DNA of 64,000 nt, taken from contig OY253683.1 in NCBI GenBank assembly GCA_958009085.1, positions 744,001 through 808,000 of the forward strand. Direction: 5' to 3'. Under the pieces are notes generated by a model, which was not told where the DNA came from, searched no databases, and saw only the letters and a list, made by a program, of their open reading frames with translations. Positions within the stretch are counted from its first letter, which is position 1. Every line of letters begins with the position of its first letter. The stretch is from Protoeuglena noctilucae (Eukaryota). The position numbers and the translations under genes were made by a program. Shown here one piece after another: positions 16,216 through 63,600 of the stretch.

Positions 16216-19025
16216 ATGGCCTGCGGTCGCGTCGCCGCCCTGGCGGTGGCGATGTGGGGGTGAGCGGGGAGCTGGAAGTGCGCGCGTGCTTTTCTGCCTG
16301 TGCTTGCGCGCCCCGGCTTTCCATCCTCCTTGGTGGCCCGTCCTCGTGACAAATGTGTACATCAGTCGTCTCCAGCGCAATCGTCTGCTCCATCGGACCA
16401 CCCTTTTCGCGTGCAGGCTCCTTGCCGCCATCGCCACCGCCGCGGCCGCGCCGGGGGGCCTGGGTCCCGCTAAAGAAATACCGGCGATTCCTAACGCGTG
16501 GACCCGGTATGCTGTGCCACCCGAGCCACGTGAGTCGTGGGCGCGCTGGCTGTCTGGCCGAGCAGCTTCCGCGGCGTTGCGATTGGCAGCCGAGCCGCGC
16601 CCGTTCTGGCCCTGCGCAGTGTCTCCCCGCCTTCTCTGGAGCGTTCGCGAGATCCACGTGGCGTGCGAGACCCAAGTCAAGGTCTGCAACCGGTCCGTCT
16701 GGGGCCGGGTCTCGATGGACGAAGGTGTGGCCGCGCAGCCTTGCCCGCGGGCGCCTCCCGCGCGATCAAATGCTGCAATTGACACATCAGTACTTGTCGG
16801 TCAGCATGTGTTCGTCCGCGAGGCCGCGGGGCGGGCGCATCGCGCTGGAGCACGATGTCCTCCTTTCTGCAACGCTCCCCGCGTCCCTCCCGCTCGCCCG
16901 CAGACTCCTTTGCCTCCAGTCCTGAAACGAAAGGTCAGACGCAGGCGGTGGGCAAGTGTCGCGTGCTGATGCCGCGCCAGGCCGCGCGAATCCCTGTGTG
17001 GCCCGGGAGCACCGAAGTCCTGAGCTTCCGGAGCGCCCGGGACGCCGCGCGGTGCCGCGTCGAGGCGACGACGGAGGAACGACCGGACCTGCTTTGGTGG
17101 GCGCTCGCCGCCGCCGCGGCTTTCCTCCTAGCCGGGCCTCTCGTCGCACATCAAGTGAGCACAGGGATGGAACGGGTCACATGGGATGCACAAAGTGGTT
17201 GCGGTAGGCAAAAGGGCCTGTGAGAGAAGGTAGAGAGGATCCGGATTGTCGCAACGCGCGTGGGCGCCGGGGCCGGCACTGGGGTTGGTTGCCCCGACGC
17301 TAGTTGCAGCAAAACGCTCGCTTCACTGCCACTCCCAACCTTTCTGCCACCCTTACCTCCCCACCCCCGCAGCTCCCTCGCGTGGCTCTCGAGGCTGCCG
17401 CCCTGGCCTGCTGCGGCGCTCTGGTGGTGCTGGCCATGGTCTTGCGTTCCGCCGCTGTCCCACGCAACCTCGTCATCTTCACCACCGCCACCACCCTCGG
17501 TCTCTGGCCCCTCATCCGGTGGCTCACGGGGAGCCTCTTTCCCTCTTTTGACACGCTCCATGCGGCCCTGTGGACCTTTGCGGAGACGCCTTGGGGAGGG
17601 ACGGTGCTGTCGGCTTACCTGGCCGCGTGCCTCGGGGCAGCCTACTACTTTGACCCGGCAGACGACAGGCGAGAGGTGTCTCTGTATTGCTTTGACCCGG
17701 CAGACGACAGGTGAGGCAGAAGACACATAGCCACACATTGTCATGCATCAGTGATCGCGTTGAGGGTGGTTGGGCTAGTATGTGATGCAGAGCGCTTTGC
17801 ATGGAGCGCATCAGATAGACCAACGACCGTGACGATCTCTCGTGCTTTCGTCTCTCCCAGCGGGGGTGGTCGTAAGATCAAGGATCTCATGCGCTGGGCC
17901 ATTCGGGGCATCGCGGCAGCCGTCATCGCTTTCTCCATCCAAGACCCCCGCGCGTCGACAGCCACGCTCGTGTGCCTGGTGAGAAGCCATAAGCTGAAAT
18001 CAAAGCGATATCTGAGAATGCGATACAGGTGCATAGTTCTATCCACAGCCACAGCCATGCTCGTGTGCCTCAGTTGTTGTCACCCACCCATCGTCACACT
18101 TCCCTCACTCCCCAGCCCCTTCTGCCCCACCCAGGCGTCGACCAGTCTCCTTTCCCACTACGCCAAGCTCGCTCCTCTCCTGCAAGCCGCCTCCGCCCCC
18201 GCCAACGCCGCCCTCCGCCTCGCCTCGTCCGCCGCAACTCTCCTCTTCGCCTTACCCATCGCACCCACCGGCACGCCAGGGCACCACCCCACAACCGGTG
18301 CCCCAGCCAGGCACTCCAGGCTCCCATCTGAGCCTGGCATCATGTCACCATTGAGCACGGCTGCACCCTCACCATACGCGGTGCCCAGCCGATTGGTGAG
18401 CGGGACTGAAGGGCGTGTCAGTGACTTATGGCGCGTGGGCGAGGGGGTTGGTGGGCGCGTGAGTGACGTGGGTGGGCGGCGCATGGGCGAGGGGGTTGGT
18501 GGGCGCGTGAGTGACGTGGGTGGGCGGCGCATGGGCGATGGGGTGGGGCGCGTGAGCGAGGCGGGCGAGAGGTCGGGTGTGCGTAGGGTGGATAATCTTC
18601 AGGGTCAGGATAATGGGCTTCGGCGGCGTGAGGGTTTTCGGGGGGAAGACAGGGACACAGCGGGGGTGCAAGCGCCACGACAGGCGGTGGGGAGTGTGGT
18701 GAAGGGCGAGGGGCATGCCGGGGTGCAAGTGCCACGGCAGGCAGTGGGGAGTGCGGTGAAGGGGGAGGGGCGCGGGGGTGTGAGAGGTCGGGTCTCGGCT
18801 GCGAGGGGTGGGGCTTGGGCTGGGTTGCAAGAGGAGGCGGAGAGCTTAGATGAGGAGGGCGAAGGGCGTGGGGTGGCAAGGCAGGCGTGCGCGTTGGTGT
18901 TGTCTGGCAAGTGCATTAACCCTCTGACGGACAAGGTGATTAAGATCGGGGGGAAGGTGTACGATTCGCTGGTGGAGAATGGATATCGATTGGACGTGCG
19001 CACGGGGTCCATGGAGGCGCCATGA
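16216..19025 (+). CDS. Signal-peptide multi-pass membrane protein, NEMP (nuclear envelope integral membrane protein)-like
   Basis: The spliced N-terminus MACGRVAALAVAMWGLLAAIATAAA is signal-peptide-like. It is followed by several TM helices, then DLMRWAIRGIAAAVIAFSIQD (resembling the last NEMP helices), a disordered tail and the terminal motif CINPLTDKVIKIGGKVYDSL. Confidence 0.6.
18405..18780 (+). repeat. Short coding tandem repeats in the tail of the NEMP-like gene
   Basis: GEGVGGRVSDVGGRRM x2-3 and GVQ(A/V)PRQAVGS(V/A)VKGEG x2. Confidence 0.8.
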
Positions 19026-23595: not shown

Positions 23596-23601
23596 AGGGC
23601 C

Positions 23602-27152: not shown

Positions 27153-30152
27153 TCATTGCGGCCCGTACTCCCCGCTGTACTCGTACGAGCTGCACACGAG
27201 CTGCGGGGGCGCAGAGGGACAACGACGGTCGCCAACAGAGATCACCCAACAGAGAAGCCGACACAGCGGCGCTCAACAAGCAAGCCAAAGACCACACACC
27301 ATCATACATACGTATACCTACCACATCCCTCCTCGGACACGATTCGATCCTCCACCCATCCACCCGCCCCGCACCCTCACCTGCGCGTTCCCGGCGCTGC
27401 CCTCCGGTGACTGCGTTGCCCCTCCCGTGGACCCACCGCCCCCCGCCACGCACGTCGCGCCGTTGGACTGCCCGCTGCCCGACGCGGCCCCCGGGTTCCT
27501 CGCCAGCAGCGCCTTCAGCAACGCGATTGTGTCCTGCAAGACCACGTGCTTGGCCCTCTTGTCTTGGCCCCCGCACACCTGGTCAGGCCCGGGTGGCACA
27601 AGCACCCTCAGCTCATTGAGCAGCCGGTTGATGCGGTCTCTCCGGGCCTTCTCCATTTGCGGGTGGTACAGCTTGTCGCCCGCCTGTGCCGTGACGCCCG
27701 CTGCCAACGAGTCGCGGCGCGGGCGGCTGGCGGAGGCGACGGTGGGGCGGCCACCGCGGCGCACGCCGCCCTGGGAGAGGGGTGGGGTAAGGGAGTGGTG
27801 AGTGTTGGGAGTGGGGTTGGGAGTGCAGTGTGGTACAAGGTGCACGCCGCCCTGGGAAGGGTGGGGTGGGGTATGGGGGGTGGTGAGTGTTCGGAGTGGG
27901 GTTGGAGGGGTGTTAGAGTGGGGTAGGGGTGGTGTTGGAAGTGAGGTTGGGAGGTGGGAGTGTTGCACAAGTGCTGTTGACTGCATCAAATGCAAAGCAT
28001 CACCTTGGCCTTGACAGCGTTGCTGTTGGATGCGACAACCAAGCAGTACTAAACCAAAGCATAACAAAGCGTCATCACCTCGGCCTTGACGGCGATGGTG
28101 CTACCTAAATGCGACATCCCTCATCCCCTGTGTCACCTTGGCCTTGACGGCGTTGCTGTTGGACGCCCCCGCGCTCTGGGGGCTGGGTGCCGCGAACGCC
28201 GCCCCGACCCCGCCCCTCACTGTCTCCTCGTGAAAGCTCGAGGCGAAGGGGTGGGTTAACGCGGAGGGCAAGTCCACGGGACTGCGTATGGGGGGGGTGA
28301 GGGGAGCTTCATAAGGAAGGGACTGGGCGGGCGTGGTGGTGGTGGCAGTGGTGGTCGTGGTGGGTGGCGTAAGGTAGCAAGGGTGCGGGTGGGGTGGGGG
28401 CAGTAAAAGCCACCAGCATGCATCATTCGTCGGCAAGTGTGTAAGCAAGCAAGTCAGCAAGTGTGTAAGCAAGTCATAAAGCAAGTGACCCCACGCATCG
28501 CATCTCACTTGTCGTGGGCGCTGTGGCGAGCGGAGGCCTGCCCCCCGGCTGGCACGGACAGGGCGTGGTGGAGGGGGTGCGCGGGGCCTGGCGGGTGGAG
28601 GTGCGCGTGCACGTTGGGTAAGGCGATGCGCATGGTGGGCTTGATCGATTGGCCGAGGGACATCGTGCTAACGGAAGGGCCCAGGAGGGAGCCTCCGTGC
28701 ACGGTGCCGGCGCGCGCGCGGGCATGGTCCTCGAATGACGCCCGGAAGCCTGCAGAAAACGTGATGTGCGATGATATCGTGATCGTACCGTGACGAGATC
28801 GTGACACGTGACGTGGGCTGGCGCAGCGGCGCGTGGGCTGCTGGTGCGGGTATAAATGGGGTCGCGAGGTCGCGGTGAATACGCGGTGGTTGCGGCGAGC
28901 GGCAGAGGGGGCGCGGGGCAGCAATGCACCGGCGCAGAGAGCGCTGGGAGTGTGTCGGAGTGCGCGCATGTCGCCCACTTGCCTGAGTTGTCGTGGCCGT
29001 AGAGGGCTTGGAACGCGAGCCCCGCGCCGTGGTAGGTCTTTGAAGGGCCGTGGACGGAGCTGCCGACCTCGTTGTGCGCCACGCTGCCCGTGAAGGTGGG
29101 CGCGGCCAGGGCGCCCGTGTCCCCCGACGCGGCGGGCGCCGCGGAGGGGCCGGGGTCGTGGAGCTCGGACGACAGGAACTCTTGCAGGATCTGGATCTCG
29201 CTCTCGGGGATCAAGTCGTGGTCCAGCACGCAGTCGTCCAGGGGAGAGCTCTCCTCGCCGTGATGCCGCGTCTGCGGGGGTCCAAAGCCACCGGATTCTC
29301 GCGCGATGCGTCATATCCGCATCAAAACAAGCGGGGAGCTCGCCGCACGCGCGCTGTGCGCGTCATCGGGGCGGGGGAAACCGGCGAGGGAGCCGGCGAA
29401 CCCGTTAGGGCCGCAGGGACGCAAAGGGGGCCCGAGAAGGGGAAAAAGGAGCTAGATATCGATGTGAATGATAACATGGAGGGCCAGGCGAGCAAAAATA
29501 TCGCCACCCCGGCCCGCACGGGCCTGCCAAGATGCCGCGGCAGGTAGCACGCTTCCAGGAGCCGCGAATGCGCGGCGCGGGCATCCCTCCAAGCCATTGG
29601 CGTCATGTGCAAAGTCTGACCGCGCCGCGAGGCCTGGTGCGCAGGCCGCCGGGCGGCAAAACGCAGGCGGTCAGGCCGGTCACATGGGTCCCCCCGTCGG
29701 GCGGAGGCCTCGCGGGGCACCTCCAACGATTTGAGCACTCGTGTTGCGCAAGAGGGGGCTCGTAAGGAACCCCAGCGCGCTCGCTAGCCCCGCCGGGATG
29801 ACGGCTGCTGGAGCCAGGTCCCCCGCCCGCAGACGCGCGGGCAGAGGGCTCGCTGGGGGCAGGACGCCGTCGGAAACGAGACAAACCACCTCGCGGCAGG
29901 CTCCAGCGCGCCAGTGCCGCCGGCTGGGCGCCGAACGGGGCTCCCGCCCTGCCGTCGCCCAGCCGGGGCCGCCCGCAGCAAATGGCGTGGCATGGCCTGC
30001 GCCCGGCCCAAGCATTTGACGCATAGCACGCGGGGAGGCCTTCCCAGTACGTGATTCCTCACCCGTAAAAACTCTGCGATAGGATCGTCCCCTGCCTCCA
30101 GGCGCCCGACGAAGCCGCACTCGCTGAGGTCCATCGGCGCCTCGAGCAACAT
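27153..30152 (-). CDS. bHLH transcription factor
   Basis: YHPQMEKARRDRINRLLNELRVLVP...KRAKHVVLQDTIALLKAL at about 27500-27670. The last exon is LVCSSYEYSGEYGPQ*. The first exon is uncertain (ATG 29366 or 30152, both with phase-0 donors). Confidence 0.8.
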
Positions 30153-30451: not shown

Positions 30452-33400
30452 TCAGCCCGCAGATCCGAACGACCGGTTCAGCGCGTCGTCGCCTCCCACG
30501 ACCTCCACCCCCGCCCGCCGCAGCTCCTGAATCGCCAGCGCCTCCACCCTCTGCGGAGGGGTGATGCAAAGCCCGGCGTTGGATTGCGAACCGCAGCTGC
30601 GCGTTTGATCGTTGCAAATCGCATCGCATCGCTTTCCGGAGGCCTCACCCGGGCCTTGGACTTCCCGCCCGTGACCGCCACGGCCCAGGCCTCGCACGGC
30701 TGGCCCGCGCCGGCCCCGCCCGCGCGCGCGTGCTGCGCCAGGCGCTGCGCGAGGTTGTCCGTCTCGCCGCAGTAGAAACGCCCGTCCCCGCTCCGGCGCA
30801 GAAGGTACACGAAGGTGTTGCGCTGCGCTTGCGGGGGCGGCTCCTCGCCCGGCCGCAGGTGCAGCAGGTCCCTCGGCGACAGCGGCGCGCCTAACAGCCG
30901 AGACGACACCGCGCGAAGCACGTCCGCGGCCAGCTCCGCCTTGGACGACGCGGCGCGCGGGGGCGATCCTCCGACCGCCTCCCGCAGCGGCACGGGCCGC
31001 CGCAGCACCAGCGTCCTGCGCGGAGATGCGATGGCAGTGTTGAATAATGCAATTATATCTATACAACGCACCCTTCGGATCCCCGGCTGCACCTCAACGT
31101 CGCGAGCTGCAGTGTCGCGCCTCACCGCGCGTTGACAGGACTCGATCCCCGCTCCGCCGGCGCCTGGGGCCCGGCCGACGGCGACGGCGCACGGCTGACA
31201 TCGCCAGCTGATGCCGTCGCCTCCTCCACTAGCGCTCCCGCCACCTCTCCCGCTCCCACCCGCCTCGCCGCCTCGCCAGCTGGGCTCGTTTCGGCCAGGT
31301 CGCCGGAACCGTCATCTGACTCGACCTCCCACTCCTTGCCATCCCCAGCACTCACGTCATCGTCGGCATCGTGCTTTGACAAGCGGCTGGCTGAGGCTGC
31401 TGACGGTGCTGGTCGGATGTGTGGCTCCGAATCGGCGTGGGCGGCATGCGGTGGCGAAGGAGGGCGTGGGGCGGCGGGCGGGGACAGGCCTGCACAGGTG
31501 CGGGGGCGCTAGAGGAGGTGACTGAGGTGGCGTGATCGACGGACGACGTCGGCATCACCATACCTAGCCGCTCGAAATACACAAACTGGCACGAACACTT
31601 CATATCAACTTATCCCTCACCCTCGTGCTCCTGCATCAGCACGTTCCTCAGCTCCCCCGCCCTCCGCAGCACGTCCTCGTGCACCCCACACTGGCGCGCC
31701 ACCGTCAGTGCCAGAGAGTCCATGCTCACGCCGGGGCCCAGGCGGAACGTGCTCCTGTGATGGGGAGATGTGGAGTTCATATGCAGGGCAGTGATCATAT
31801 GGCCAAGCCAGCACCTGCAAGGTGCAAGTGTATTCATAGTGTGACTATGAATGTGACTATGAACTGAAGTAAACATCTTAACTCCTCTACACACACTGCC
31901 ACCCCCACTGCCACCTTGCTGCTACCCTCACTGCCACCCGCACCAGCACACCTCACCCCCACAACCCCCACCCCACTCCTCCTCACCTCATCCTGTCCCC
32001 CCTCCCCCCCTCCACCTCCGCCGCGCCCATTTGCATCAACATCACGGGCGATCGAAGCGGGTCCGCGAGGTCGATTGCCAGTCCCCCCCGCGTCGCGAGC
32101 GTCAGAAAGTCGCGGGTGAAGTGCGTGGCAAGGAAACCCCTGGGAGTGGATGTGGGGTAAGTGCGAATAATCATAACTAACATTTTGTTAGTTGGCAGCG
32201 TAGATATGGTTATTGTAAGGTAGGTGGAGCGTCGTACGTCAGACAGGTGGCAGGACGCTTTGGTAGCAAACAAAAGGAAGGAACGGTCGCCAACCCCACC
32301 ATCCCCCCCTCTTACCAACCCCAGTGACCAACCGTTAGTCACCCACACCCACTCACCTCCCCCGCTCACCCATACCCACTCACCTCCCCCACCCCACCAC
32401 CTCTCCTCACCCCCCACACCACCACCACTACCCCCCCACACACACCACCACCCCACCCCACCCCTCACCTGGCCCCCCTGTCCCCTTTCCCCACCCCTAC
32501 CCGTCACAACCACCACTCACCCACCCGACCCCACCAACCCCTAATCCCTCACCTTGCCCCCCTGTTCCCCAGATGCTCCAGGAACGCCGCCGCGATGCTG
32601 GCGCCGGAGCTGGGATCGGTACCCTTCCCCAACTCATCGATGAGCACCAGCGAACGCGACGTGCAGTCCCGCACCACCTCGCCCATCTCCCGCATCTCCA
32701 CCGCGAAGCTGGAGGAGCCTGGGGGAGGGAGATAATTGAAAATGTTATGATTACTATGACTATTATCAGTTTTTTGTAATCATACATCTCCCGCATCTCC
32801 ACCGCGAAACTGGAGGAGCCTGGGGGGGTGGGACTTGATAATAATACTATTATTAATGTTAATAATATGTTATGATAGCGCATCTCCCGCATCTCCACCG
32901 CGAAGCTGGAGGAGCCTGAAGGGGCCACAGATGGGGTATGCGTGCTTAGTACAACGCAACTAACACAAGCATCTGCAGTACCACCTCACAACCCGGCTGC
33001 CACCACCCCCACTGCCACCCCCACTGGCACTCTGACCCCCACTCAGTCACTCAGTCAATCAGTCAACCACTTCCATCTCACCCGCGGCAGGGTTGTCCGC
33101 AGAGAAGTTCCTCAGCACAAAGGCGTCACACAACCTCACTGCCACCCTCACTGCCACCCTCACTTACACTCGGTCACTCAGTCTATCAGCCACTACAATC
33201 TCACCCGCGGCAGGGTTGTCCGCAGAGAAGTTCCTCAGCACAAAGGCGTCCAACCCCGGCACCGACGCCGCGTCTGCCGGCGCCAGAAACCCGCACCGCG
33301 CCAGTAAACACGCCGCGCACACGGAGCGGAGCAGGCTGCTCTTGCCGCCCATGTTGGGGCCGGTAATCAGGCCCATGCGGTCGATATGGACGTCGTTCTT

Positions 33401-35830: not shown

Positions 35831-35903
<73 letters not shown>

Positions 35904-38900: not shown

Positions 38901-39844
38901 CACAGAACGTGCTGCCACCACCTGGCAACCTCACCTCCATCAGCACGACCGCGTCGATGCCCACCACCATCCATCGCATCACACTACCACTCCCCACCGC
39001 ATTCCACAACATATCCAGCCACCACCCCTCTCACCTCCATCAACATCACCGCGTCGATGCCCACCGCCTCAAAGAAGTTCCCCAGCTGCACCAGCAGCAC
39101 CTTATCGGGATCCGCCCTCTTCCACTGAAAGAACTCCCCCCGAAGATTCTGCACGGCGCCGGCGGGAGTTGAGGGCAGGCCCAGGCAGTTGGACCAGTCG
39201 ATCTGAGACGCCGAACGACGCGCCTCCATGCTTTGCAATGTGGCCACCTGCTGCTGCCAGTACTGCCGGTGGTCCTCGCTGCGGCGGGAGGAGGTGGTGT
39301 AAGAGGGGTCGGCGTGGTGGGGGTTATGAGGGTGAGGAGGGTGGTTGTTGGTAATGCGGAGGAACGCGAAGGAACGATGACGGGTGTGTGATTGCAGGTG
39401 CATGCGGCTCGCGCATGTGACTGCTTAAACCAACTAACAGACGCACCTGGGCCAGGATTGGTCGTCGGTGACTGCGGTGCGGCTGCGGGGTGCGGCGGCG
39501 CGGACGGCGGAGGCGGGGAGGGGTGGACGGGTGAACGCGCCCCGGGACAACGCGGCCGGGAGAGGGCCTCGACGCAGTACGTGGTCCGCATCGTAATCTA
39601 TAGCACGTGAGAACGCCGACGGCGGCCTGCGCGGGGCGGGGAAGGGGCGCGTCGAGCGGCGCACGGGATCAGCAGGCTGCGGCGCCCACGCTGCGGGGCC
39701 TAGAGCGCCCGCGCACCCTCCGCTGGGCGGACCCTGGAAAGCATCGAATCGGTTGTATCGGCTCCGACCGGGAGGTGCGTCCGGACGTCCCCCGGCGAGG
39801 CCCAGGCCGCCGCGCAGGAGGGCAGCCGCGCGTCTCGTTGCCAT
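30452..39844 (-). CDS. MSH1: Organellar MutS homologue 1 with C-terminal GIY-YIG endonuclease domain (many exons)
   Basis: Mismatch-binding VLLVQLGNFFEAVGIDAVML, Walker A ITGPNMGGKSSLLRS, SSFAVEM, VLIDELGKGT, GIY-YIG VYLLRRSGDGRFYCGETDNLAQRLAQH...GKSKAR. The N-terminus is Arg/Ala-rich and targeting-like. Confidence 0.93.
35782..35903. repeat. (AAT)n microsatellite with embedded poly(A) run in an MSH1 intron
   Basis: Direct observation of aataataat... and an A-run of about 17 nt. Confidence 0.95.
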
Positions 39845-46474: not shown

Positions 46475-49400
46475 TCAGTCGGGCCCCTCGAGCACGCGCT
46501 GCAGCATCTCCAGCTCGTCGTTGCTCAGGAGCTCCCGCAGCCCCTGCTGCACGTCCACGCGCCGGGGCTGCTGCGGGCGCGCCGACGTCGCCCGGCCGCG
46601 CATCAAAGGGTCCGCCATGTACACGCGCATCACTGCGGGAGCGCGGGTGGATGAAAATGCGGGATAAGGGTCTTTTGATTGCATCATGCGCCATTCGACG
46701 TCACGAATCACGAACACCACATGTGCACAATTGATATGCATGCAGCTCACCGCGCACGAGGGTGGCAGGGGCGGGCAGGGCGCGGTCCTGCGGCTCCGCC
46801 TCCTCCTCCACTGCGGGGACAGATACAGGGATCAGACATGAATATGTAAACGTGCTTTGTAAGAGATTAGGCCACGCCTCCAGGCGCACGCGCCAGCACT
46901 GCCCGTGGCGCTGCGCTGAGGTCGTGCGCTGCTGCAGCAGCGACAGGCGCCAAGCAAGCACCCCTGCGTCATGATTAACAGCTACTACGTCGCAATCGAG
47001 GTTCACAGCGGTGGGTCTCGCCTTGGTGGACCTTCTTGGGCCGGCTCAGTCGGTCGGCCATGTCGCGTATTGTCTGCCGGCTGAGCTTGGGCGGAGACCC
47101 GGGGCCCGTCGCGGCGATCTCCGGGAGGGTGTCCGTGATCACGTAAGGCTCCTCCTTGAGCCGCGCGCGGCGCACGCGGGCGCTCTGCGGGTGCAGGGTG
47201 GGCGACGCAACCAAGGGTGGGTAGGCGGTAGCAAACTAGACTGTGCGCCGGCAATCCATTTCACCCACACTTATCTCTCATCAACTGTCCACGCACCTGC
47301 GATCGGCTCTCCTTCTCCACCACCGCATGCCGCCAACTCCCCACCGCGCCCCCACCCCCCCTCCGCCCCCACTCAGCCCCAGCCCCCACCGTTGCCGGCC
47401 TGCCACTCGCCCCCGCATCTCCCGACCTCGCCACCGACGATGCCCCCATCTCTCCCACATCACTCATCAAGGTGTCTAACACACGCACCACACCACCACC
47501 TCTTGACTCCCGATCAATGCTAACACCCCCACCCCCAGCACCCCGCATCTCCCTATCCACACTCACACCCCCACCACCACCCCGCATCTCCCTATCCACG
47601 CTCACGCCACCCCCACCACCCCCGCCCCGCCCGTCCCTATCCACGCTCGCCCGCCCCCGCACAGGCGTCGCCGCCCCACTCGCCGCATCCCACCCCCACC
47701 CCGCCCCGCCCCGCTCCCCTCCCGGCGTCGGCGAACCCCCCATCCGCATTCCTGCAGTCGTTCTGGCAGTGATGGGGCGTGACAGACCCCCGTGTGCGTC
47801 GCTCGTGCGGCGACTGGTGCGCTGAGAGCGACGCTTCTCCTCCAGTTTCAAGCGACGCTGCGGGTGGGGGAAGGCGGACAGAGGGTGTGGCGTAGGATGA
47901 GGTGGTGAAATACTTTATATTTTGACATGAACATTAACCACGATACTGCTATCAACCACACACCACACCACCACCACCACCCCACCGCCCCTCACCTCGT
48001 CATCCTCCCTCTTGACCCACAGCTACAGTACTAATGCAATGAGATACTTACATACCAACAACTCAACTGCTATCAACCACACCATAGATATCAACAACAC
48101 CACCATCACTCCTTACCTCATCATCCTCCCTCTTCACCCACAGCTTCCGGAACGCAATGAGCCCCTCAAAGCACTGGCTGCAGACCTCGGCGCGGCGCCG
48201 GTGGAAGCCCACGTTGGACCTCTCGGTCAGGTATTGTTTGCGGGAGAGGGACTTGAGGGACCGTGCGATGCCCGGGGGCATTTGCTCCATCAGCCAGGCG
48301 CGGCGGCGGTCGTCGGGCTCCATGCCGACCTGGGGGGAAAGGATTATAAAAAAGTGCAGTCGGTGATAGTATGCGGTGTCAGTGAAAGTGACTAGTATAG
48401 AGATGCATCTGCTCCATCAGCCACAGCGGCGGAGGCGGTCGTCGGGCTCCATGCCGACCTGGGGAAGGGGGATGAGAGGGTTGGGGTTGATCGTATCAGT
48501 TATAAGGAACATGACTGAGCACGCCCAAACAAGCAACCAGCCACCCTTCACTCGCCTTGCCTTCTTACATACATATTACTGCATAGTATGGTATAATAGT
48601 AGTACTATATACCGCACTTGATCACCGTCAACATTAAGCACCCCCTCACCTTGCTCTCGTATTCGGATATCAGCGTGTAGAAGTCGATCGACGTCTTGGA
48701 ATCGTACTCCTTGACCCTCCCGCAGTGACAACAAAGGAAAGCCCCGTGCGTCGTCAGGGGCTTGACCTCGTTTTTGATCTGCGTCGACAGCTTGCTGGTG
48801 CGCACGCTCAAAGGGCGGTCCGGCGCCTCCACTCCCTTCCCGGGGCCTTCTAGGGAGAAACCAGTGCAGAAGAGGAGCCACAGGCGGCCCTCGAAGTCCT
48901 CTTTGAAATACAGCACTGGGGAGGGATGGGGAAGGGGTGTATATATAGTATTCTTAATGCATTTGATGTGATGCGTCATATTGTGCGTCACATGTGCGAA
49001 TGAGTGAGGGGGACGGTGAAGGCATGTAGTTTGACGGCTGCAATGGGACACATGTTTGTATCTATGATAGACAGATGCGCCATGCAAGCACTGCATCTAT
49101 GAAAGACAGATGCGCCATGCAAGCACTGCCTCTTCCACTCTCACCCATGTGCTTGACGCTCCACGCCCCCGTGAATATCTCGCTCACGTGGCTGGCGATG
49201 GCATCGCACGCCTCCGCCACGCGTGTGTACAAAGCCGGGCTCTCCTGCGAAGGGGGGGATGGGTGGTTGTTAATAGTTTTCAGCTGCTGGCATGATGTGC
49301 GACGTGCTTTCATTACACATGAACCCCAATGACAAGCCCAAACCACCACCACTCACCGTGCGCAGGTCTGTCTTCTTACTCAGGGACATGCTCCCCTCGA

Positions 49401-50904
49401 ATATCAACTCAATAACACATCCATATACTGTTAACATATCCACATTAATCAACATATTCATATCAACTCACCGTGCGCAGGTCAGTCTTCTTACTTAGGA
49501 ACATGCTCCCCTCAAAGGTGACTAGCCGCGCCTCCAACGCGTCCCTCTGGGCGATGGGGTCCAGCCCTGACTCGGTGCCTGACGCGGGGGGGGTACCCTC
49601 CCCGGGAAATGACTCGGGGACCTGGGGAGTGGGGGAGGGGTGTGGGGGTAGAGTTGGGAGTGGTGGGGGACGTGTGGCGAGGGGTGAGGTAAAAGGGCTG
49701 CAATGTGAGAGGTAAGGGGTTGTGAGGCTGTAAGTGGGGATGAAGGTGTTCCTTACACAGCTTCCGCTCACCATGGGCTCATTGTTCTCCCTCATCTCCA
49801 CTTCCATGATGTGCAGGTGCCACGATCACATATCATGTACTCTATCATTTACATGGCATACAAGAACTCATCATGTTTCAAACACTCTTTCTCACCATGG
49901 GCTCGTGGTTCTCCCTCATCTCCGCCTCCATGATGTGCGGGTGCCACACGGCGCGGATCATCGCGTTGTGCGGGCCCAGCGGGGTGATGAAGCGCTGCAG
50001 CACCGCGCTGGTCGGCTTGAAGTCCCGGGTCAAGAACGCGTCCAGGGATGTCGCGTCCATGTATCGCACCGACGTCACTGGGGTGGCAGGAGAGGTGTGG
50101 GTAACTGTATTAATATATAAATGTATCACTTCAGCAGCCCATGATCACGCCCTGCGCACTGCATCACCCCATCCCTCCCTCTCCATACCTCCGCATCACT
50201 TAAACCCACACCGCCTTTCCAGCCACCTTCACCCACCGCAGCCCCCCACAGCTCACCACCCCACGCCCCCACCGCCCCGCAACACCTCTCACCCGGTATC
50301 TCCTTGCCCTTGGGGGGTATCCCCATCACTTGCGGGTGCGGGATGGGCTTCAGGTAGAGTTCCGGTTCGATCCCGTCGATGTCCGTGTCGGGCCAGAGCA
50401 GCACGGACGTCACAGGGGCGCCCTCCCGCGCACACCGGCTCGCCCACTTGCGCACAATCTGCTGCTCCGTCAGATTCTCAGCCCGCTTTCTACATGGTAG
50501 AGGGAGGAGTTGCGAACAATTGGATGGCGTTACGATGTCGGGGACGTCAGCTTTAAGCATTGGCGGTCATGGGCACGATGTGCGACGCCACCAACTGAGC
50601 CCGCGGAGCCTCGAGAGATCCCGAAAGTCACAGAATCCGATGATTAAATGAGTATTACACTAGACACGACTCACCTCAGGATCTGTTTCTGGACCTTGGA
50701 GGAGAAATACCAGACCATGGGCTCGCCATTCTCGATGATAACCGTGTCCGGGAGAGATATGCGGTTACAGGTGCTGCCGGACGCCGTGCGCGTCCACAGC
50801 AAGTGATGGAGCTGATGGACGAGGCCCGGCTGGAATATTTGCGGGGCGGGAGGGGCCGAGAGCGGCCGCGACGGGGCGCCTGATGCCCCGCCCGCGCTGC
50901 CCAT
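46475..50904 (-). CDS. Uncharacterised multi-exon protein with globular domain (possibly ATP-grasp-like) and two CxxC pairs
   Basis: Exons ISLPDTVIIENGEPMVWYFSSK, VLQRFITPLGPHNAMIRAVWHP, RLVTFEGS, VLYFKEDFEGRLWLLFC, CCHC, CSQC, joined by GT-AG introns. Confidence 0.7.
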
Positions 50905-51713
50905 CCCGACGCCCGGGGAGGCCCGCTCCCGGTGCCGGCGAAATGAAGGGGTAGTAGAGTTTCCGACTGCACTGAAGACAAAGAAGGAGAGAGTTTTGGG
51001 GAACGCGAAGGGCCCTGCAGACGTTGTGGTTCCTGAAAAGATTCGACTCTGCGCCGATGGGGCCGCATGCTGAGGACTGCATTAGCGCAGCAATGCGACA
51101 GCGCGGTGCGTTCGGCGCGGCGCTCGATACGGCGGCCAGTCGGCCCGTGTGCGGCAGCGAGGCCGAAGGCATGTCGCACGAACGAGCACCTGCCGTGCGA
51201 GCACGCGAAAGCTCAGTCCGAGGTTGCAAGCAGCATGCGAGCTGCTATCTGTATCAAGATGCTGGGGAGAGACTCGCGCGCTCGTGCGCCTCGGCGGTGT
51301 GCGCGCCAGCGGTGGCCTGGGCACCGACAATAACAAAACGCGCCGGCGGCAGAGAAGACGCTTTACAACCTCCGGGCTATCGACAAGCAGTAAGTGCTAC
51401 ACAGATTAACTCACAGTGACGGTGTTTGGGGCTGGAAATGCGCGGACCACTTCCCAATTCCCACACTGGCGCAGCCCTGGCGCTTCAGCGTTCTCAAGGC
51501 CCTCCCCGCCGGCTCTGCACTGGGCTCTCCCGTCGCCTCATCATCAGCTGCCAGGCAGGAGTGCTCCTGGCCTTTTACGCGCAACAGGGCCCCGTTGGGG
51601 TCAAATAGATGCCGCACACTTGCATGGGCGAGTTGCGCCGCTGAACAGCTCCTTTCGTGACGTATTTGCTTCCCCGCGCTGCTTGCCGTCCATTAGATCC
51701 GGGATCGAAGGAA

Positions 51714-54173
51714 ATGACGGGGGATGTGGCCTTTGGCAGCTCTGCGGGGCTCGTGGTGGGAGTGGGGCCTTGCAGCTACGCAACCGCGGTCGGAGCCCGG
51801 CAGGTGATGAGCGCTGCTGAGTGGAAATGTGTTGACCTTGCTTGCGGGCGTGCTGTCACGACCGCATGCCCGGTTTCCGCCTTGTAAATGCGTGAAAGAT
51901 CCAGCAGTGCACGAATTCGACCCGACGGTGCATCTGCGCTGCGGCTTCTTCCGCCCGCAGGATGCTGACGGGGGACGTCACTCAATCGCCGAGGTGGTGC
52001 GTGGGTCTTCCGCGCAAGACCGGCAGACGAGCCACGCGGAGGCGGGTTGCCAGACGGACGTCCCCAAGCAGCGCTCGGGTGCGCGGCACGGCGTGCCTGC
52101 CCACGCAGCCTGGGTGCAGCTGCATTCATATACTCATAGTCTCGCATATCCGTGCGTCGCCGCAGTGGGCCTGCGCACCGACGCCCTCAAGCGCGCGGAA
52201 ATGGCCGTGCAGGTCGCTCCGTCCGACTTTGCCCGCTCCGCCGAGCAGGCGCACGCGCAGCTTGTGGAGTCCCTGCCAGGGTATTTATCCTCCAATCCGC
52301 CCGCGCTCCGGCGTCTCATGGCGTGCCTCGCGGAGAACGAAACGTCGCGCGCCTTTGACGCCGACGCTGCGTTCGCCTCCGGAGTCTCCTCCGCCGCTTG
52401 CCTGGCCACGCTGCGCGTCGCGGATGGTCGTTCCGCAGGTCTCGTCGCGTCCGCCTTGGCGTGGAACTGCACGGGCAACGTGGTGGCGCTGGCCCTTCGT
52501 GACCCGGCAGCATCAGAGGGCTGGGCCGGCCACGGCCTGCTCGCGGTCTGGAACCTCGCGCTGCAGTCGCAAGAGCCGGAGGTCATGCTGGAGACGGACG
52601 CGGGGCTCACGTGCGCGGCCTTCCACCCGGAGAGGAAGATGGTCCTGGCGGCAGGGACCGTGACAGGTGAGCTATGCTGACTTCAGGAGAGGAGGCATGT
52701 ACGGGAGCCTTGCATGAAACCTATTGCCCCACTTTTCGTGCCCTCAGGTCACATCGTGCTGTGGGACCTCTCCCAGACCGACCCCAGCAAGCGCGTCATC
52801 GCCGCCACCACTCTCCAGTCTGAGGCACACACCGAGGCGGTCACTGGGGTTTTCTGGCGCCAGTCCGTGGTTGAGCAGATGCGCCTGGGCCGCGCCAACG
52901 CCCACCAGCTCGTCTCGACGTCGACCGACGGCCAGGTGCTGGTCTGGCACCCTGACTCATTCGCGGCGCCAGCGGACCGCGTTTCGCTGGCGGCGGGGGG
53001 GGCCGAGGTCGGCATCGCGGCGGCGGCGGGGAATGCGGCGGACGGGGGGGCCACGGGGCACGTGCTGTTGGGGTCTGAGGTGAGAGGGGGAGAGGGGGGT
53101 GTGATATGGGGTGGCATGGGGTGCTGGTGGGGTAAGAGGTGAGAGGGAGAGAGTGGCGTGGGGTGAAGTGAGGGTGGGGTCAGAGGTGAGAGGGAGAGAG
53201 GGCGTGGCTTGGGTGGCATGGGGTGGGGGTGGGGTCAGAGGTGAGAGGGAGGGAGAGGACGTGGCATGGCATGGAGTTGTGGTGGGCTCCCGTGGGCTCG
53301 CGTGAGGTTGCGTTGAAGCAAAGCGTAGAGCATTCCATAGTCCCTTTGGCTCTCACACCTCCCCACACAGACGGGCAAGGTCATGCTGGTCGATCTCCCC
53401 GACCGCGACGTGGGCGGGCTGGCCCACAGCGACGGCGCCCGCGCCGCACCCCGGGGCCCAAAGACCTCCTTTTCACCCCACGCGGGCGCCGTCAGCGCCG
53501 CCCGGTGGGCTCCCTTCTCACCCAGAGTGTTCCTCACAGCAGCGGTGGATGGTGACGTGCGCGTGTGCTGCACCCACCGCCCTGCCCCCGTCGTCGCATT
53601 CTCTCCCCACAAGGACGGCCTCACTGCGGCCGAGTGGAGCCCCGTGCGCCCCGGCGTCGTGGCCGTGGGCACTGCGGGGGGGGCTGCGATGCTCTTTGAC
53701 CTCACACGGTGAGCTGATCAGGGGGTGCGGGGGGTTCGTGCTGTGGGGATGTTTCGTGATGTCAATGTACCATGCTCTGGTTTGTTGGTGCTAACGACAC
53801 CCTCTTGGTACACTCCACCCTCTCACGCCTCTTGTTGCCGACTCACATTACCCGACCAACTCTTTTCTCTTTTCTTCACTCCTCCTACCTCACTCTCACC
53901 CCACCCACCTCCCGCGTCCGCAGCGGCGTCCGCGCCCCGCTCCTCACCATCCCCCCCGAGGCATGGGGGGCGTCAGTCTCAGGGCCCTTGCGGGCCCTGG
54001 CGTTCAACCCCACGCACCGAGAGCAAGTGGCCACGGCAAGGGGTGACCAAGTGAGCGTGTGGCTGCTGCCGGCAGCGCTCGTGCGGAAGACGGCGGGCGA
54101 CGCGAGGGTGGCGGGGGCGCTGGAGAGGGGGGAGGTGCCGGCGGGGGTGTTGAGGGCGGGGGCAGTGGCGTGA
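51714..54173 (+). CDS. WDR34: WD40 dynein-2 (IFT retrograde) intermediate chain, WDR34/FAP133-like
   Basis: GCQTD light-chain-binding-like motif, LAENETSRAFD, LAWNCTGNVVA, CAAFHP...LAAGTVTG, HTEAVTGV, LVSTSTDGQVLVW, EWSPVRPGV. Confidence 0.8.
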
Positions 54174-57688: not shown

Positions 57689-60600
57689 ATGACGGTGGCA
57701 GAGGACTCGGTGCCCAAGGCGGAGCCCTCGCACCCGGCGGGCCCCGATGCCGCGCGCCAGGTGCGATGGGAGAGAAGGCACTTGGTTGCTGCCGATAACT
57801 GACCGAAGCGGCGGAATTGTCCTCCCGCTTTTCGTCTTCGCGCAGAAGCGCGCCCAGCAGGGGCAGCGCAACGAGCGCTCGCGGCCGCCTCTCCCGTCCG
57901 ACCTGGCCAAGGCCGTCGAAGGCTACCAGGAGCACTTGCAGAACGGCGGTGGGCCAGCGCTCACGCAGGAGCAGGTGCGGGGCGGAGCGAGCTTTTGTTT
58001 TGTACCCGGAAGCTGCAGCCCGCGCTCCCGATGCGTGCGAGCTGGGTGCTGCAGGTTGTCACTTATCATCCTCATGTCGCCGCCTGCGCCCCGCGTGCGG
58101 ACCGTGCGCCGTGTATAGTGTCCCGAGGCGTGCTCCCCCAACTGTGCCTCACGCGCGCTAATTCCTGCGTCCTTTGCCCTCAGATCGAACGTGTCCAAGC
58201 GCAGCGAGTCATTCTAGAGCGCGGCGTGTACGGCGGGCGCACCGTGAGCCGCGAGATCGTCGGCGCGGCCTGCCCGCGCGAGGCGGGCGTGGTGGCGCCC
58301 CTTCTGGAGTCCCTGGCCGCGAAATTCGACAACGTGGAGACCGGTGAGTGTTTGTATATATAAAATGGCATATCAATAAACAATAGAAGCGCTCAGTCGG
58401 AGCGACACAGGGCCCGGAAGCGCGGGTTGGGACGATTGTTTGACAAAAGAAGCAGCTTGGTTGGCATTGCAATTAGCTTCCGCCCTCCGCCTGGCGCATC
58501 GAGATCGATGCGTGTTTCTCATTCCCGCAGACCGCATCGTCACGCGTCCCAGCAAGCCTCTGTACGGCGTGGTGGACGCGAAGGAGGGTGTGCCGGACGG
58601 CCCTTTGAAGCCCGTCTTAATTAACAACGCGGGGTACAAGGTGAGAGGCTTTCCTTGAGCGACGATACTAGTGTAGAAGATTACAATGCTGCGTCACCAC
58701 AGCACGCAACCCCACCCCCACTGCCACCCTTAACACGACCCCCACTGCCACCCCCAATGCCACCCCCGCAGCTCCTGCACCGCGAGCGTCTGCGCCGCCT
58801 ATCGCGCGCGCAACACCAGGCCCTGTCTCGCGCCATGGGCGTGCTGTCATTGGAAGCGGGGGGCAGTGTGGTGGGGGCGGGTGAGGGCGAGGGGGGTGGG
58901 CGAGTGGAGGGGGACGAGTGTGTGAGGAGGACCAAGGACGGACTCACCATGCGGGTGCCCGCGAGAGGGCTGCAGGTGACTTGTATGAGGGGGGCGTGGG
59001 ATGGAGTGGTGGGGTAGAGAGTGCGATGGGGTTTGCGATGGAGTGGGCTCACCATGCGCGTGCCCGTGAGGGGGCTGCAGGTGAGGATGCAATGAGGGAC
59101 TGTTTATCAAGGAGTGGGATGGGGTGGTGGGGTGTTAAGGGCGAGGATGAGATGAGGGTGGGGGTTGTCATGCGCGTGTGCCGGCAAGCCATCCTTTGAT
59201 GACACCAATCTGCATGCCAATCAATGCTGATAGTAATGATATATAGTAATATATACATTACCATTCCCAACCCTCGCAGTTCCGCTCCGACCCCACCCCC
59301 GAGAGCCGCCGTGTAGTGCCTGGATTTAAAGCGCCAGAGGAGGGCGGGGTGCCCATGGGGCTGCAGTGGCTGAAGCTGCGGATGCTGCGGCTGAGGGCGT
59401 GGCAGGAGGAGCTGAGGGGGGAAGTGGAGCGGCAGGTGAGAGTGGAACGGGGGGGGGGGTGAGGGGTGGGGTGTTGTGAGGGCGGCAGGTGAGGGTTGGA
59501 GTGGGGGTGGCAGGGGGAGCTGAGAGCAGGGGTGGAGAGGCAGGTGAGGGGTAGTGGAGGGGGGGTAAGAGAAGGGGCTGTGCACATCACCCTCCAATCC
59601 CTCACCCATCACGCTCACCCTCTCACCCTGTCACACCCCACTCCTCACCCTCCCTCACCCTCTCACCCCATACCTCACTCCTCTCACCTTCCTTACCCCC
59701 ATTCCCTTCCCCACCCCCTCCCCCCCAGTGTCGCCTGACGTTAGAGATCTGTCGGGGCAGCCGCGGGGGCATCATGGAGCAAAAGTGCTGGGCCCACGTG
59801 AAGGCCGCCGAGAGCTGGTGGGACCGGCAGCAAAGGACGAGGGAGAAGGAGATGGACCAGCAGGCGAGGATGATAAGAAATGATGGAATAATAATTATAA
59901 TCATTGTGTTGATCATCACAGTAATGATAATACCAATAATGAGCACAAGGAGGACGTCGACCGCAACGACCGCATCTTTTCATAAAATACATAATATATA
60001 ACATTACCATCTCACTTCATCTCCTTTTCTGCCCCCCCCTTCAGGCCCGCAAGCGTAAGGAGGAGATCGACCGTTGGCTGTCCTCCCGTCAAGAGCACGC
60101 CTCGTTCGCCCAATCCAAGCGCACGGTCATCAACCAGGCGGTGCAGAGGGCGCACGACAAGCTGCTCAGGGACGCGCCGCAGGGGGATAGGCTTAAGGTA
60201 AGAGAGGGGTTCATTTGTAAGTAAGGGTTAGGGTAATGAGTACATGAGTAATGAGTACATGTTTCGATTACATGTAGAGGGCGCACGACAAGCTGCAAGG
60301 GTAGCAGGGGGACAGGCTCAAGGTGAGGGGGGAGATGGGTTGTTATTGATGGTTATTGTCCTTTAAAATCTAGTGTCCAAATGTCACATTGATAGCACGT
60401 TGGTACTCATAGTGTTGATACTCTCATAGTAGTCATGCTATCTGATACTATCTACACTATGTATATCGATAATATACTTTTTTATTTTCCTCTCCCTCCC
60501 CAACCCCCAAGGCGGTGGACAAGGCCGAGTCTCAGTCTCATAGATATAGTATTGTGTTTTATTGCTTATCATTTCATGTTTCCCATTCTTCTCCCCCCCC

Positions 60601-63600
60601 CAGGCGGTAGACAAGGCCGAGTCGCAGGCCCAGCGCATGGAGGCGTTGAAGGCCAACGACATGGCCAAGTACCTGCAAATGCTGGTCGGACAGGGTTTGT
60701 CCCCAGAGGACCCCAGATACAGGGAGATAGCGGCTTTCGTGGAATCTACCGATCGATACCTGCATCGGCTGGCCACGCGGCTGTCGCAGTCCCGGATGCA
60801 GGAGCAGCTGAGGGAGATGGGGGCGGCGGCCATGAGGGACGCCAAGGTGAGGGGTGGGGGTGTAGGGGTGGCAGTGGGGGTGGCAGTGGGCATCAACAAC
60901 AGTAATCCAGTCATGATATCTATTTCCATAACCCCCCACCCCTTTATCGCAGCTCCGCGGCGCGACCGACGAGGACATCTCATCTAATATCTAACATCTA
61001 GTATATGTTACTCCATTTCCCCTCAATCCCCCTATTTGCAGCTCCGCGGCGCGACCGACGAGGAGGCGGCCGAGGCCCAGCGGGAGGCGGTGCACCGGGG
61101 GGCGGAGGAGCTGACGGAGATGAGCCGCATGCACACGGCGATCGGCAACGCGCAGACGCGGTACTACATGACGGCGCACGCGGTGGAGGAGGTGGTCAAG
61201 AGGCAGCCGGGGCTGCTGCGGCCGCCGCCGGGGGCCACCCTGCGCGAGTACCAGATGAAGGGGCTGCAGTGGCTGGTGTCGCTGTACAACAACCACCTGA
61301 ACGGCATCTTGGCGGATGAGGTGAGAGGGGTGGTTGTTGGGAGGGGTATAAAGTAGTGGATGCCAGTTGTCGGCAACAAACCCCCGATGTTACTGCTTTC
61401 CATTCGAAAGTGCACATTACTTTATCATACATGTTTACTGAATCATCACCCGTGTGCTGTCCGCAGATGGGCCTGGGCAAGACGGTGCAGGTCATGGCGC
61501 TGGTGAGGGGCAAGCTGTCGATGCCGACAAATGCAGTGGACTGATTCGAATGGGTTAGTGTATTGACATGACACATTGCGAATTGTAATAGTAACTACTT
61601 ACTGCAACGCCCAAACGCACCCCCTCAGATTGCAGGACTTATTTTTCTACTCAATACAACTCCTCAACAACCCCCCCCCCCAGATCGCGTACTTGATGGA
61701 GAACAAGGCCAACTACGGCCCCCACCTCATCATCGTGCCCAACGCGGTGATGGTGAACTGGAAGGCCGAGCTGCTGCAGTGGCTGCCTGGCATCAAGTGC
61801 GTCTTCTACGTCGGGTCGCCGGGAGCCAGGCAGGTCATGCTCACGCGGGACGTGGAGGTGAGTGCGAGGGTGCTAGGGCGGTTGGGATTGGGACTGGTGT
61901 GAGTGGGAGTGAGGGTGGCAGGTGCTGCAGTGCACTGTGACGGCTTTCCTCATGACTTCCATCTCTCCTTCACCTCGCTATATCCGCCTCGTTATCGCCA
62001 CCTCGTCACCTCCCCGCTCCGTCCCCGCCACGCAGCCGCTCCAGTTCAACGTGCTGGTGACGACGTACGAGTTCGCCATGAACGACCGGTCGCGGCTGTG
62101 CCGCGTGGACTGGAAGTACATCATCATCGACGAGGCGCAGCGGATGAAGGACCGCGAGTCGAAGCTGGCCAAGGACCTCGACAGGTTCAAGGCGTCGCGG
62201 AGGCTGCTGCTCACGGGTGAGGGCGGGGCAGAGGGCGGGAGCTGCGGGCAGCTGCGGTGGCGGCGCGAGGCGTTTTAGCAAGGACGCTTGTCGCTCTCTC
62301 TCCTTCTCTCGTGTTCCCGGAGCTTAGTACTGAATGTTAAGTAGAACACCGCACCGGAGGATAGCATAGCACGGCCCTTGTTCTGACCCAAGAAGGCCCG
62401 CCCTCCCGCTGCAGGCACGCCGCTGCAGAACGACCTGCAGGAGCTGTGGGCGCTGCTGAACCTGCTCCTGCCGAACGTGTTCGACGACCGGAACATCTTC
62501 ACGGACTGGTTCTCGCACGCCGGCGGGGGCGAGGGGGCCGCGGAGGACAACTGGGTCGAGAAGGAGAAGCGCATCCTGGTCGTGCAGCGGCTGCACCAGA
62601 TCCTGGAGCCCTTCATGCTCAGGCGAGCCGGCGCGGACGTTTATGATCCAAATGCAAACCGGCGCGCGGGCGGGCGGGCCGCAGGTCGCGGCCGGGAGCC
62701 AGCTGCACTTGGGCCCGCTCCCGGCCCACCCTGCGAGCTTGCAGGTTGTGGGCTCGTCTGGCGGGCCCATTTCCCTTTGCTGCGGCTTTTTAGACATTTT
62801 ATTCGTCCACGCGCATCGATTTGAGTCCGCTCGGCCGCTTCTTACGGGATGTTGAGAACAGCGCGTTCTTTGCGTATTTTGGTTTTTTGCAGGCGTCAGG
62901 TGGAGGACGTGGAGAAGAAGCTGCCCCCGAAGATTGCCGTGGTCGTCAAGGTCCCGCTCAGCGCCCTGCAGTCGAAGGTCTACGAGTGGGTCCGCGCCAC
63001 GGGTGAGGACTTGGTTGCTTTCGTGCGACGGGGTGCGGGGCCAGGTCAAGACTGATGCGCCTGCGATATATATGCAGCATGTCCCTGTGCGTTTCGCTCG
63101 CAGGGACGCGCCGCTGCGACCCGCTCAGCTACGACTACGAAAAGGCGCAGCGGCACGGCAAGAACTACACGAGCCTGCGGAACCGGTGAGGGTTTCGAGG
63201 CCGTGGGGAGACTTGCGAACCTAGTACTGAGTGTTTTGCTTCTTATAGAGTCAGTTTCAAGTTAAGTTCTCATGATCTTCGCCGGATCTGATCACGAGTG
63301 CCCTCCGCATCGCCTCCCCGCAGTATGGTGGAGCTGCGCAAGATCGTGAACCACCCCCTGCTGTGCTACCCCGACCAGTACGACGTGGAGGCGGTGGGGG
63401 TGGGGCCCAGCATCGTGAGGAGCTGCGGGAAGTTCTGGGTGCTCGACCGGCTGCTGGTGAGAGCTGCTTAGTTGGACGTGGTGTTAGTACGACGTTAATA
63501 TCGTCATCATCATGCTACCATCGTCACTTTCGATGAGGGCAACATAGATCATCATTAATCGCTATTCTGTCCCAGGTCAAGTTCTTCAAGACGGGCCACC

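Follow-up and report, generated by a model that had tools for sequence, protein, structure and literature searches.

Introduction

Intron growth, intron sliding and the origin of new splice sites have mostly been inferred from rare and old cases. Rogers' model reportedly describes the creation of introns by tandem genomic duplication across an AG|GT site. New intron structure is known to arise through tandem duplication across such sites (PMC2891723, PMC3265369), and introns gained or changed in this way are described in Drosophila (PMC2891723), in vertebrate ATP2A1 (PMC3265369) and in potato RdRp (PMC4974935). In addition, short tandem duplications that arise at staggered breaks, by Pol alpha-primase fill-in followed by end joining, are an established class of mutation (PMC8355091). 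In this study, we analyzed a 64,000-nucleotide (nt) stretch of DNA from the marine green alga Protoeuglena noctilucae (contig OY253683.1, positions 744,001 to 808,000; hereafter, the window), in which a number of exon-intron junctions are accompanied by an "echo", i.e., a direct copy of the exon end and its splice site within the adjoining intron.

Results

Echoes of exon-intron junctions

The gene model used here is our own prediction, with the strand assigned per gene span; it is approximate and contains 87 introns, i.e., 174 junctions. The median predicted intron is 198 nt long, and donors of both GT and GC (GCGAG) types occur. Echoes are 20-65 nt long and 87-100% identical to the junction that they copy. 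On the gene strand, each pair consists of either an exon end with a GGTGAG-type donor or a CAG acceptor with an exon start; one copy is located at the true junction and the other is intronic. We found echoes at 19 junctions (14 donors and 5 acceptors), or about one junction in ten. They are distributed among six genes (Table 1): a NEMP-like gene (2), a bHLH gene (1), MSH1 (7), a gene at 46-51 kb (4), a WD40 (WDR34-like) gene (1) and BRM (4). The offsets between copies range from 42 to 170 nt, with a median of 115 nt, and 17 of the 19 fall within 89-133 nt. A hand count gave no preference for multiples of three (7 of 19). The echo-bearing introns, at 195-1501 nt, are longer than their offsets, and the echo is inside the intron.

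An initial annotation of the window had proposed about 20 such junctions in the same six genes, with offsets clustered at about 89-130 nt, and our inventory agrees with it in both respects. Its statement that every duplicate carries an intact splice site is accurate for nearly all echoes, but not for 18051-18070 (no GT), 60504-60535 (AAG for CAG) and the partial copy at 28075-28094. The sequence between the copies (the spacer), described there as diverged or AT-rich, is indeed mostly unalignable; it is AT-rich in about half of the pairs (GC content 0.24-0.38), but G-rich in the rest (GC content up to 0.62).

Tests against chance and artefact

Comparison of the window with itself yielded 32 complex direct pairs, 20 of which have offsets of 80-139 nt. 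Complex direct pairs that were 25 nt or longer and at least 90% identical numbered 22, whereas none of the 10 local Markov resamples contained any. Fifteen inverted pairs were found within 300 nt, all of them short of this length and identity. In a junction-centered test, queries of 24 exon and 6 intron nt were compared with their own introns, and with other introns as a control, at a threshold of at least 20 of 30 matching positions. Own-intron matches were detected at 19 of 156 junctions, compared with 0.2 expected, and three weaker candidates were found besides (offsets 84, 108 and 46). Identity in these hits is skewed high, with 27-30 of the 30 positions matched in 11 of the 19. Chance is excluded as the source of the echoes. 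They are also confined to the six genes, where they occur at 18 of 108 junctions, and none was found at the 66 junctions of five other gene spans (Fisher p = 1.5e-4), as had been noted at first sight of the sequence.

The copies might instead have been produced by errors of assembly or by mixed haplotypes, a possibility that the initial annotation had itself raised. Short-read contigs do end at those echoes that are most exact (e.g., 38848/39038 and 48334/48435), as such errors would predict, but such breaks are equally the expected effect of real repeats of at least 31 nt in assemblies of this type. Moreover, contigs from the marine metagenome run X5, which may be related to the source of the window, carry both copies of four pairs (37002, 47990, 49351 and 49767), with 0-1 letters differing. 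Because these pairs are intact and the breaks occur where real repeats would cause them, the probability of an artefact is close to negligible.

Tandem duplications, arrays and geometry

At three loci, the copies belong to whole-unit tandem duplications. These are 33063/33186 (period 123), where spacer-to-partner identity is 0.69 versus a null of 0.51 (z = 3.5); the array at 53069-53264, where it is 0.76 (z = 3.2); and 47990/48111, where spacer similarity has rank 0 of 63 and similarity continues into the intron, including a 17-nt identical block. Serial arrays are present in introns 32722-33204, 36161-36749, 38617-39034 and 53080-53370, with copy edges constant within each. All copies are direct, and the register of the arrays is constant. 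In the first of these introns, Tandem Repeats Finder (TRF) reports a period of 96 with 2.4 copies at 32684-32918, where the spacers are AT-rich; in the second, additional decayed ATACGG-GTGAGG units with a period of 76 lie at 36499-36613, downstream of the echo at 36625-36658. The three whole-unit loci and the four arrayed introns establish that tandem unit duplication operates at these junctions. The earlier view that no standard feature class accounts for the echoes is unsupported in this form: the three loci are ordinary short tandem duplications, and several introns carry serial arrays. In the remaining pairs, similarity is limited to the junction part of 20-65 nt, with spacer-to-partner identity close to the null. 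Divergence in the plain tandem cases amounts to 22-40% for the intron-derived part and 5-9% for the exon-derived part.

When units of the observed sizes (89-133 nt) were placed at random in these genes, 43% straddled one junction, 34% were wholly intronic and 20% were wholly exonic, i.e., the ratio of junction to intron-only placements was 1.27:1. A bias of this size needs no special mechanism, since exon-only events would disrupt the protein and junction events keep the outer splice site. Removal of one echo unit would make the affected introns 89-133 nt shorter. This agrees with the recurrent local duplication that had been proposed to lengthen introns, and the spare donors and acceptors predicted to result from it are present and intact. 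Small local duplications of DNA are the most likely source of the echoes; they lengthen introns and add spare splice sites.

Divergence of the copies and properties of the spacers

The exon-derived parts of the echoes contain 34 differences in 626 nt (5.4%). Read in the frame of the exon, 14 are non-synonymous and 20 synonymous; by direction, 16 are GC>AT, 12 are AT>GC and 6 are other changes. These differences look close to neutral, and their directions are mixed. Two simple descriptions of the divergence were ruled out: a consistent GC-to-AT decay of echoes (16 versus 12), and divergence of the copies as two coding sequences, as the differences are not confined to synonymous sites. On the acceptor side, identity past the copy edge is slightly raised over about 30 nt (0.65-0.56).

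Spacers are 51-102 nt long, with a mean of about 70 nt. Those at 49351-49513 and 49767-49947 in the 46-51 kb gene, for example, are both 67 nt long and unalignable, with GC contents of 0.27 and 0.33. All 18 spacers scored (12 donor, 6 acceptor) are poor in one base, C on the donor side and G on the acceptor side, which is the native composition for their position in the intron, and spacers are not more locally repetitive than ordinary intron sequence. Several possible origins of the spacers were considered and rejected. They do not form a repeat family, since 70 AT-rich islands of at least 45 nt, the AT-rich spacers included, are mutually unrelated. Among the spacers tested, none resembles sequence elsewhere in the window on either strand. 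Folding of 12 spacers identified neither hairpins nor elements with inverted terminal repeats (z from -2.6 to +1.6), and comparison with the upstream exon ruled out that donor spacers derive from it as in-register, mutated copies. Also rejected was a patchwork origin from local 8-mers of either orientation, as local sharing equals that of ordinary intron segments (0.21 versus 0.16, p = 0.11); local direct sharing in this test amounted to 221 nt, versus 59 in distant contexts.

The introns of the window are also rich in splice-like hexamers. Internal GGTGAG occurs 34 times, compared with 11.4 expected, and the 5' halves of introns are G/T-rich (e.g., 38617-39034). Its reverse complement, CTCACC, occurs 21 times, compared with 6.0 expected, and by eye lies in the C-rich 3' halves. 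With GGTGAG in the 5' halves and CTCACC in the 3' halves, the two halves of an intron could pair.

Individual echoes and other repeats

Coordinates of all echoes are given in Table 1. In the NEMP-like gene, the 42-nt in-frame duplication at 17648-17715 is a candidate alternative donor pair, 14 residues apart; its 16-nt spacer resembles, by eye only, an inverted copy of the sequence directly after the second donor. In an MSH1 intron, within a genome of 65% G+C, a 105-nt (ATA)n run with an inner poly-A lies at 35799-35903, between a donor and its echo, and probably stretched the offset of this pair to 170 nt. Two echoes were predicted as small in-frame exons, 47996-48022 (27 nt) and 28004-28048 (45 nt), which would encode the peptides LWVKREDDE and SNSNAVKAK a second time; they may be prediction artefacts or new cassette exons.

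Other repeats occur in the window as well. Coding tandem repeats with periods of 30, 81 and 90 nt are present at 4137-4707 (minus strand) in an exon and are separate in kind from the echoes. G-rich tandem arrays with GTGAG in their units lie in unannotated stretches at 157-430 and 18430-18771 (periods 83-89, 48 and 57 nt) and may represent additional arrays of donor units. At 49060-49133, within an intron and away from junctions, a 35-nt unit is tandemly repeated (2.1 copies, 94%) and looks exact.

Table 1. Junctions with echoes in the window. Junction, splice position in the gene model; offset, distance between copies.
Gene	Type	Junction	Strand	Span	Copy at junction	Echo	Offset (nt)	Identity	Remarks
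NEMP-like	donor	17710	+	17648..17715			42		26-nt exon end plus donor present twice; first copy GCGAG, second GTGAG; reading frame kept
NEMP-like	donor	17978	+	17958..18070	17958-17977	18051-18070	93	95%	exon end at GGTGAG donor; 20-nt echo without GT
bHLH	donor	28136	-	28000..28163	28133-28163	28000-28030	133	97%	partial middle copy 28075-28094; HLH domain found
MSH1	acceptor	32719	-	32684..32918	32684-32725	32785-32826, 32881-32918	101, 197	37-38 of 38	
MSH1	donor	33204	-	33063..33250	33186-33250	33063-33127	123	87% matches	plain tandem duplication, TRF period 123
MSH1	donor	35919	-	35745..35944	35915-35944	35745-35774	170	87%	spacer with (ATA)n/poly-A run
MSH1	acceptor	36161	-	36121..36269	36121-36169	36221-36269	100	49/49	
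MSH1	donor	36749	-	36499..36775	36742-36775	36625-36658	117	91%	
MSH1	GC-type donor (AAG|GCGAG)	37121	-	37002..37161	37117-37161	37002-37046	115	96%	both copies in one X5 contig
MSH1	donor	39034	-	38812..39065	39030-39065	38930-38965, 38812-38847	100, 218	92%, 95%	exon backed by homologue P0001
46-51 kb gene	donor	48116	-	47990..48145	48111-48145	47990-48024	121	91%	both copies in one X5 contig
46-51 kb gene	acceptor	48330	-	48300..48464	48300-48335	48429-48464	129	97%	copy extends about 62 nt with one indel
46-51 kb gene	donor	49471	-	49351..49513	49466-49513	49351-49398	115	94%	X5 contig 48435-51999
46-51 kb gene	donor	49895	-	49767..49947	49891-49947	49767-49823	124	91%	within X5 contig
WD40 (WDR34-like)	donor	53080	+	53069..53264	53069-53096		106	85% matches	exon end plus GTGAGAGGG at 53069-53096, then array of that unit, period 102-106
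BRM	donor	58976	+	58943..59084	58943-58979	59048-59084	105	92%	
BRM	donor	60197	+	60145..60328	60145-60202	60276-60328	131 falling to 125		echo with two deletions
BRM	acceptor	60603	+	60504..60627	60596-60627	60504-60535	92	91%	echo AAG for CAG; exon 60613-60846 homologue-supported
BRM	acceptor	61041	+	60949..61064	61038-61064	60949-60975	89	27/27	

Supporting data for the gene model

The base composition of the window is 55-72% G+C. The products of its intron-rich genes match the HLH domain, MutS domain V, WD40 repeats and SNF2 ATPase, and homologues back the MSH1 and BRM exons that adjoin several echoes. The closest named relatives of the BRM exon are in the green algae Picochlorum, Coccomyxa and Volvox (74-83% identity). 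Marine metagenome runs contain 35-86% of the words sampled from 32000-41999. A metagenome scan for MSH1 relatives detected bacterial MutS loci only, at most 52% identical, without a sister locus among them. P0001, the nearest MSH1 protein, is not close enough to provide a sister gene structure.

RNA and DNA reads were compared with 32000-51999. RNA contigs back two model introns, both outside the echo genes (joints 44831>44950 and 45088>45212), and among these listed joints there is none for an echo-bearing intron. An RNA contig of run X9 at 34725-35109 falls within the model's 1501-nt MSH1 intron (34419-35919), and therefore the MSH1 model is probably missing at least one exon there. GC donors (AAG|GCGAG) occur in several predicted introns on the minus strand (37121, 38026, 38450 and 47021), and the first of these carries its own echo at 37002-37046.

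Discussion

Origin of the echoes

We favor, with moderate confidence, an origin of the echoes in tandem duplication that straddles the junction, after which the intron sequence scrambled rapidly. Some 90-130 nt across the exon-intron boundary would have been copied head to tail fairly recently, and several times serially in some introns; error-prone repair of breaks or error-prone replication is a likely cause. The outer splice site, beside the true exon, would still give a normal mRNA, and the inner exon end and splice site would become intron. We infer from this fate of the inner copy that such a duplication is close to neutral. Three filters could then shape what is seen. Units wholly within exons would be lost to selection. 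As introns are about 200 nt long, most surviving units of this size would straddle junctions by geometry. Finally, the complex, GC-rich exon-derived part would stay recognizable, and the low-complexity or AT-rich intron part would scramble quickly.

The narrow range of offsets may likewise reflect a declining spectrum of duplication sizes that is cut off below by two limits. Plants recognize introns partly by AU-richness, and about 50-60 nt of ordinary intron would presumably be needed beside the splice site that is used. The other limit is the 20-nt threshold of detection.

Several properties of the copies fit poorly with this explanation. The intron-side copy edge lies 3-9 nt past the splice site in most pairs, i.e., its depth is not varied, and donor-side identity past this edge is at background (0.46-0.56 versus 0.48). 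An exon part of 20-57 nt is found in all of the 17 pairs, against 53% expected from random placement. Gapped identity of the spacers to the sequence predicted by tandem duplication is 0.37-0.61, against a null of about 0.5, with z below 1.5 for 14 of the 19 comparisons. Beside near-random spacers, three acceptor copies show no differences over 49, 38 and 27 nt, and the fourfold faster intron decay of the plain tandem cases is too little to account for them. Synonymous differences, at 20 of 34 versus an estimated 14-15 or so for a freely decaying echo, are in weak excess, which leaves room for constraint or gene conversion. Lastly, the observed pairs (about 18 at junctions and 4 intron-only) exceed the geometric ratio of 1.27:1. 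The focus on splice junctions described in the initial annotation is largely expected from geometry (43% versus 34%). Part of the excess may be a detection effect, because intron sequence here loses alignability fast and intron-only duplications are therefore harder to see. The oddities that remain are the anchoring of edges at the splice consensus, exon parts that never exceed 57 nt, and the narrow range of offsets.

In the main rival explanation, an existing intron received, at a distance of 50-100 nt, a copy of the 20-65 nt junction patch alone, either at a break or through a double switch of template, and the spacer is the original intron. The copy edge would be set by microhomology between the splice consensus and a splice-like intron motif (GTGAG, CCCCAG). 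This would explain sharp edges and native spacers without unequal rates of decay: both edges are sharp, the intron-side overlap of 3-9 nt is of microhomology size, donor-side identity beyond it does not rise above background, splice-like motifs are common in introns (as the GGTGAG counts illustrate), and spacers are unique, with no template in the window on either strand and a composition native to their position. Nevertheless, the three whole-unit tandem duplications are not patches, and the constant copy edges in the arrays better fit the duplication of units. When 63 introns are ranked by similarity to the sequence that lies upstream of the echo, acceptor spacers fall within the top 0-6%, a hint that the copied unit was longer. 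Templated repair elsewhere gives both orientations, but inverted copies are absent here, and there is no sign of a break or repair pathway at these loci. We therefore consider patch copying possible but unlikely. Alternatively, the duplications may be older, with an exon-like core held identical by gene conversion from the exon or by selection as decoy, recursive or alternative splice sites. A core of 87-100% identity beside near-random flanks, splice signals that are intact in nearly all echoes, the synonymous excess and the high skew of identities in the junction-centered test are all in line with such upkeep, and 8 of the 14 donor echoes end in AG|GT or AG|GC, the arrangement of recursive sites. 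However, differences are spread along the copies and not crowded at their edges, and 14 of them would alter the protein; the echoes are therefore not maintained as coding sequence. A length of 20-60 nt is also short for gene conversion, no pyrimidine tract precedes the donor echoes, whose upstream sequence is exon-like, and the RNA joints listed include no evidence of use. The lack of echoes in five neighboring gene spans is, moreover, as expected for tolerated debris. Upkeep of older copies thus appears improbable.

An insertion of a small mobile or introner-like element, with the element as spacer and the copies as long target-site duplications, would account for the copy-spacer-copy layout, the fairly constant spacer length and the AT-richness of about half of the spacers. 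It is very improbable, as the AT-rich islands are unrelated to one another (within the window, only (ATA)n-type matches beat shuffles), the folded spacers lack terminal inverted repeats and hairpins, copy length varies between 20 and 65 nt, and the spacers have no splice sites of their own. A broader question is whether the echoes are something other than passive debris. Either copying could be anchored at splice-site recognition, taking a patch from 3-9 nt past the splice site to 20-57 nt into the exon and placing it about one short-intron length away, perhaps through repair coupled to transcription or splicing or through an RNA template; or conversion or selection could keep the copies identical, with the copies acting as decoy or recursive sites to guide splicing in the AT-rich introns of GC-rich genes. 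We regard an active role of either type as doubtful, and junction-straddling tandem duplication remains our preferred explanation.

A single 64-kb stretch provides 19 young events of one kind; in some the tandem duplication is still plain, and in others only the junction copy is left. Should the rest of the genome be alike, hundreds or thousands of dated events would be available in a natural system, in which the origin of junction duplications, the turnover of intron versus exon-like sequence, and the passage of spare sites to alternative or new exons could be measured. Such a system would also show how a choice is made between identical splice sites in a GC-rich genome with AT-rich introns. 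Two specific anomalies are the sharpness of the edges at the splice consensus and the contrast between 5% and near-random divergence.

Comparison with known systems

In the portion of the literature covered by our search, junction copies are nowhere described as a pattern that is dense, stereotyped or genome-wide. Related work concerns templated insertion by polymerase theta and, in plants, paired nicks. The echoes share with the products of staggered breaks a direct, head-to-tail arrangement, lengths of tens of bases and the lack of a mobile element. The staggered-break duplications described in PMC8355091 are below 100 bp, exact and adjacent; in contrast, the units here are 89-133 nt, or consist of 20-65 nt copies that lie 50-100 nt apart.

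Introner elements, as described in PMC9860276, also add splicing-tolerated sequence to genes and are common in marine algae. They form multi-copy families with shared sequence, whereas the spacers here are unique and lack shared ends. Within the window, we found no set of near-identical insert copies (only microsatellite-type hits exceeded shuffles), no terminal inverted repeats in the 12 spacers folded, and no target-site duplications of fixed length, the copies varying from 20 to 65 nt. The echoes also resemble recursive and tandem alternative splice sites in the juxtaposition of AG|GT or in the presence of a second site near the real one, and the pair at 17648-17715, in frame and 42 nt apart, is compatible with a tandem alternative donor. 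Recursive sites, however, serve very long introns and not introns of 200-600 nt, and the donor echoes lack the upstream pyrimidine tract.

The closest described process is the creation or shift of introns by tandem duplication of AG|GT sites. In both cases, a short intragenic tandem duplication with a splice motif has a unit of intron size, and the redundant copy can be removed from the transcript with the protein unchanged. In Rogers-type gain, the length of the intron equals the unit, with the donor in the first copy and the acceptor in the second; the echo-bearing introns exceed their offsets, with a possible exception in a predicted 94-nt intron with a 27-nt echo exon (47996-48116). The duplicated AG|GT is an existing junction here and a proto-splice site inside an exon there, and what results is not a new intron but a lengthened one that holds a spare site inside it. 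The cases presented in the papers on this process (PMC2891723, PMC3265369, PMC4974935) are isolated ones, compared with about one junction in ten across six genes in the window. What sets the present locus apart is the density of its echoes, together with their splice-anchored edges and the contrast in divergence between exon-derived copies and spacers.

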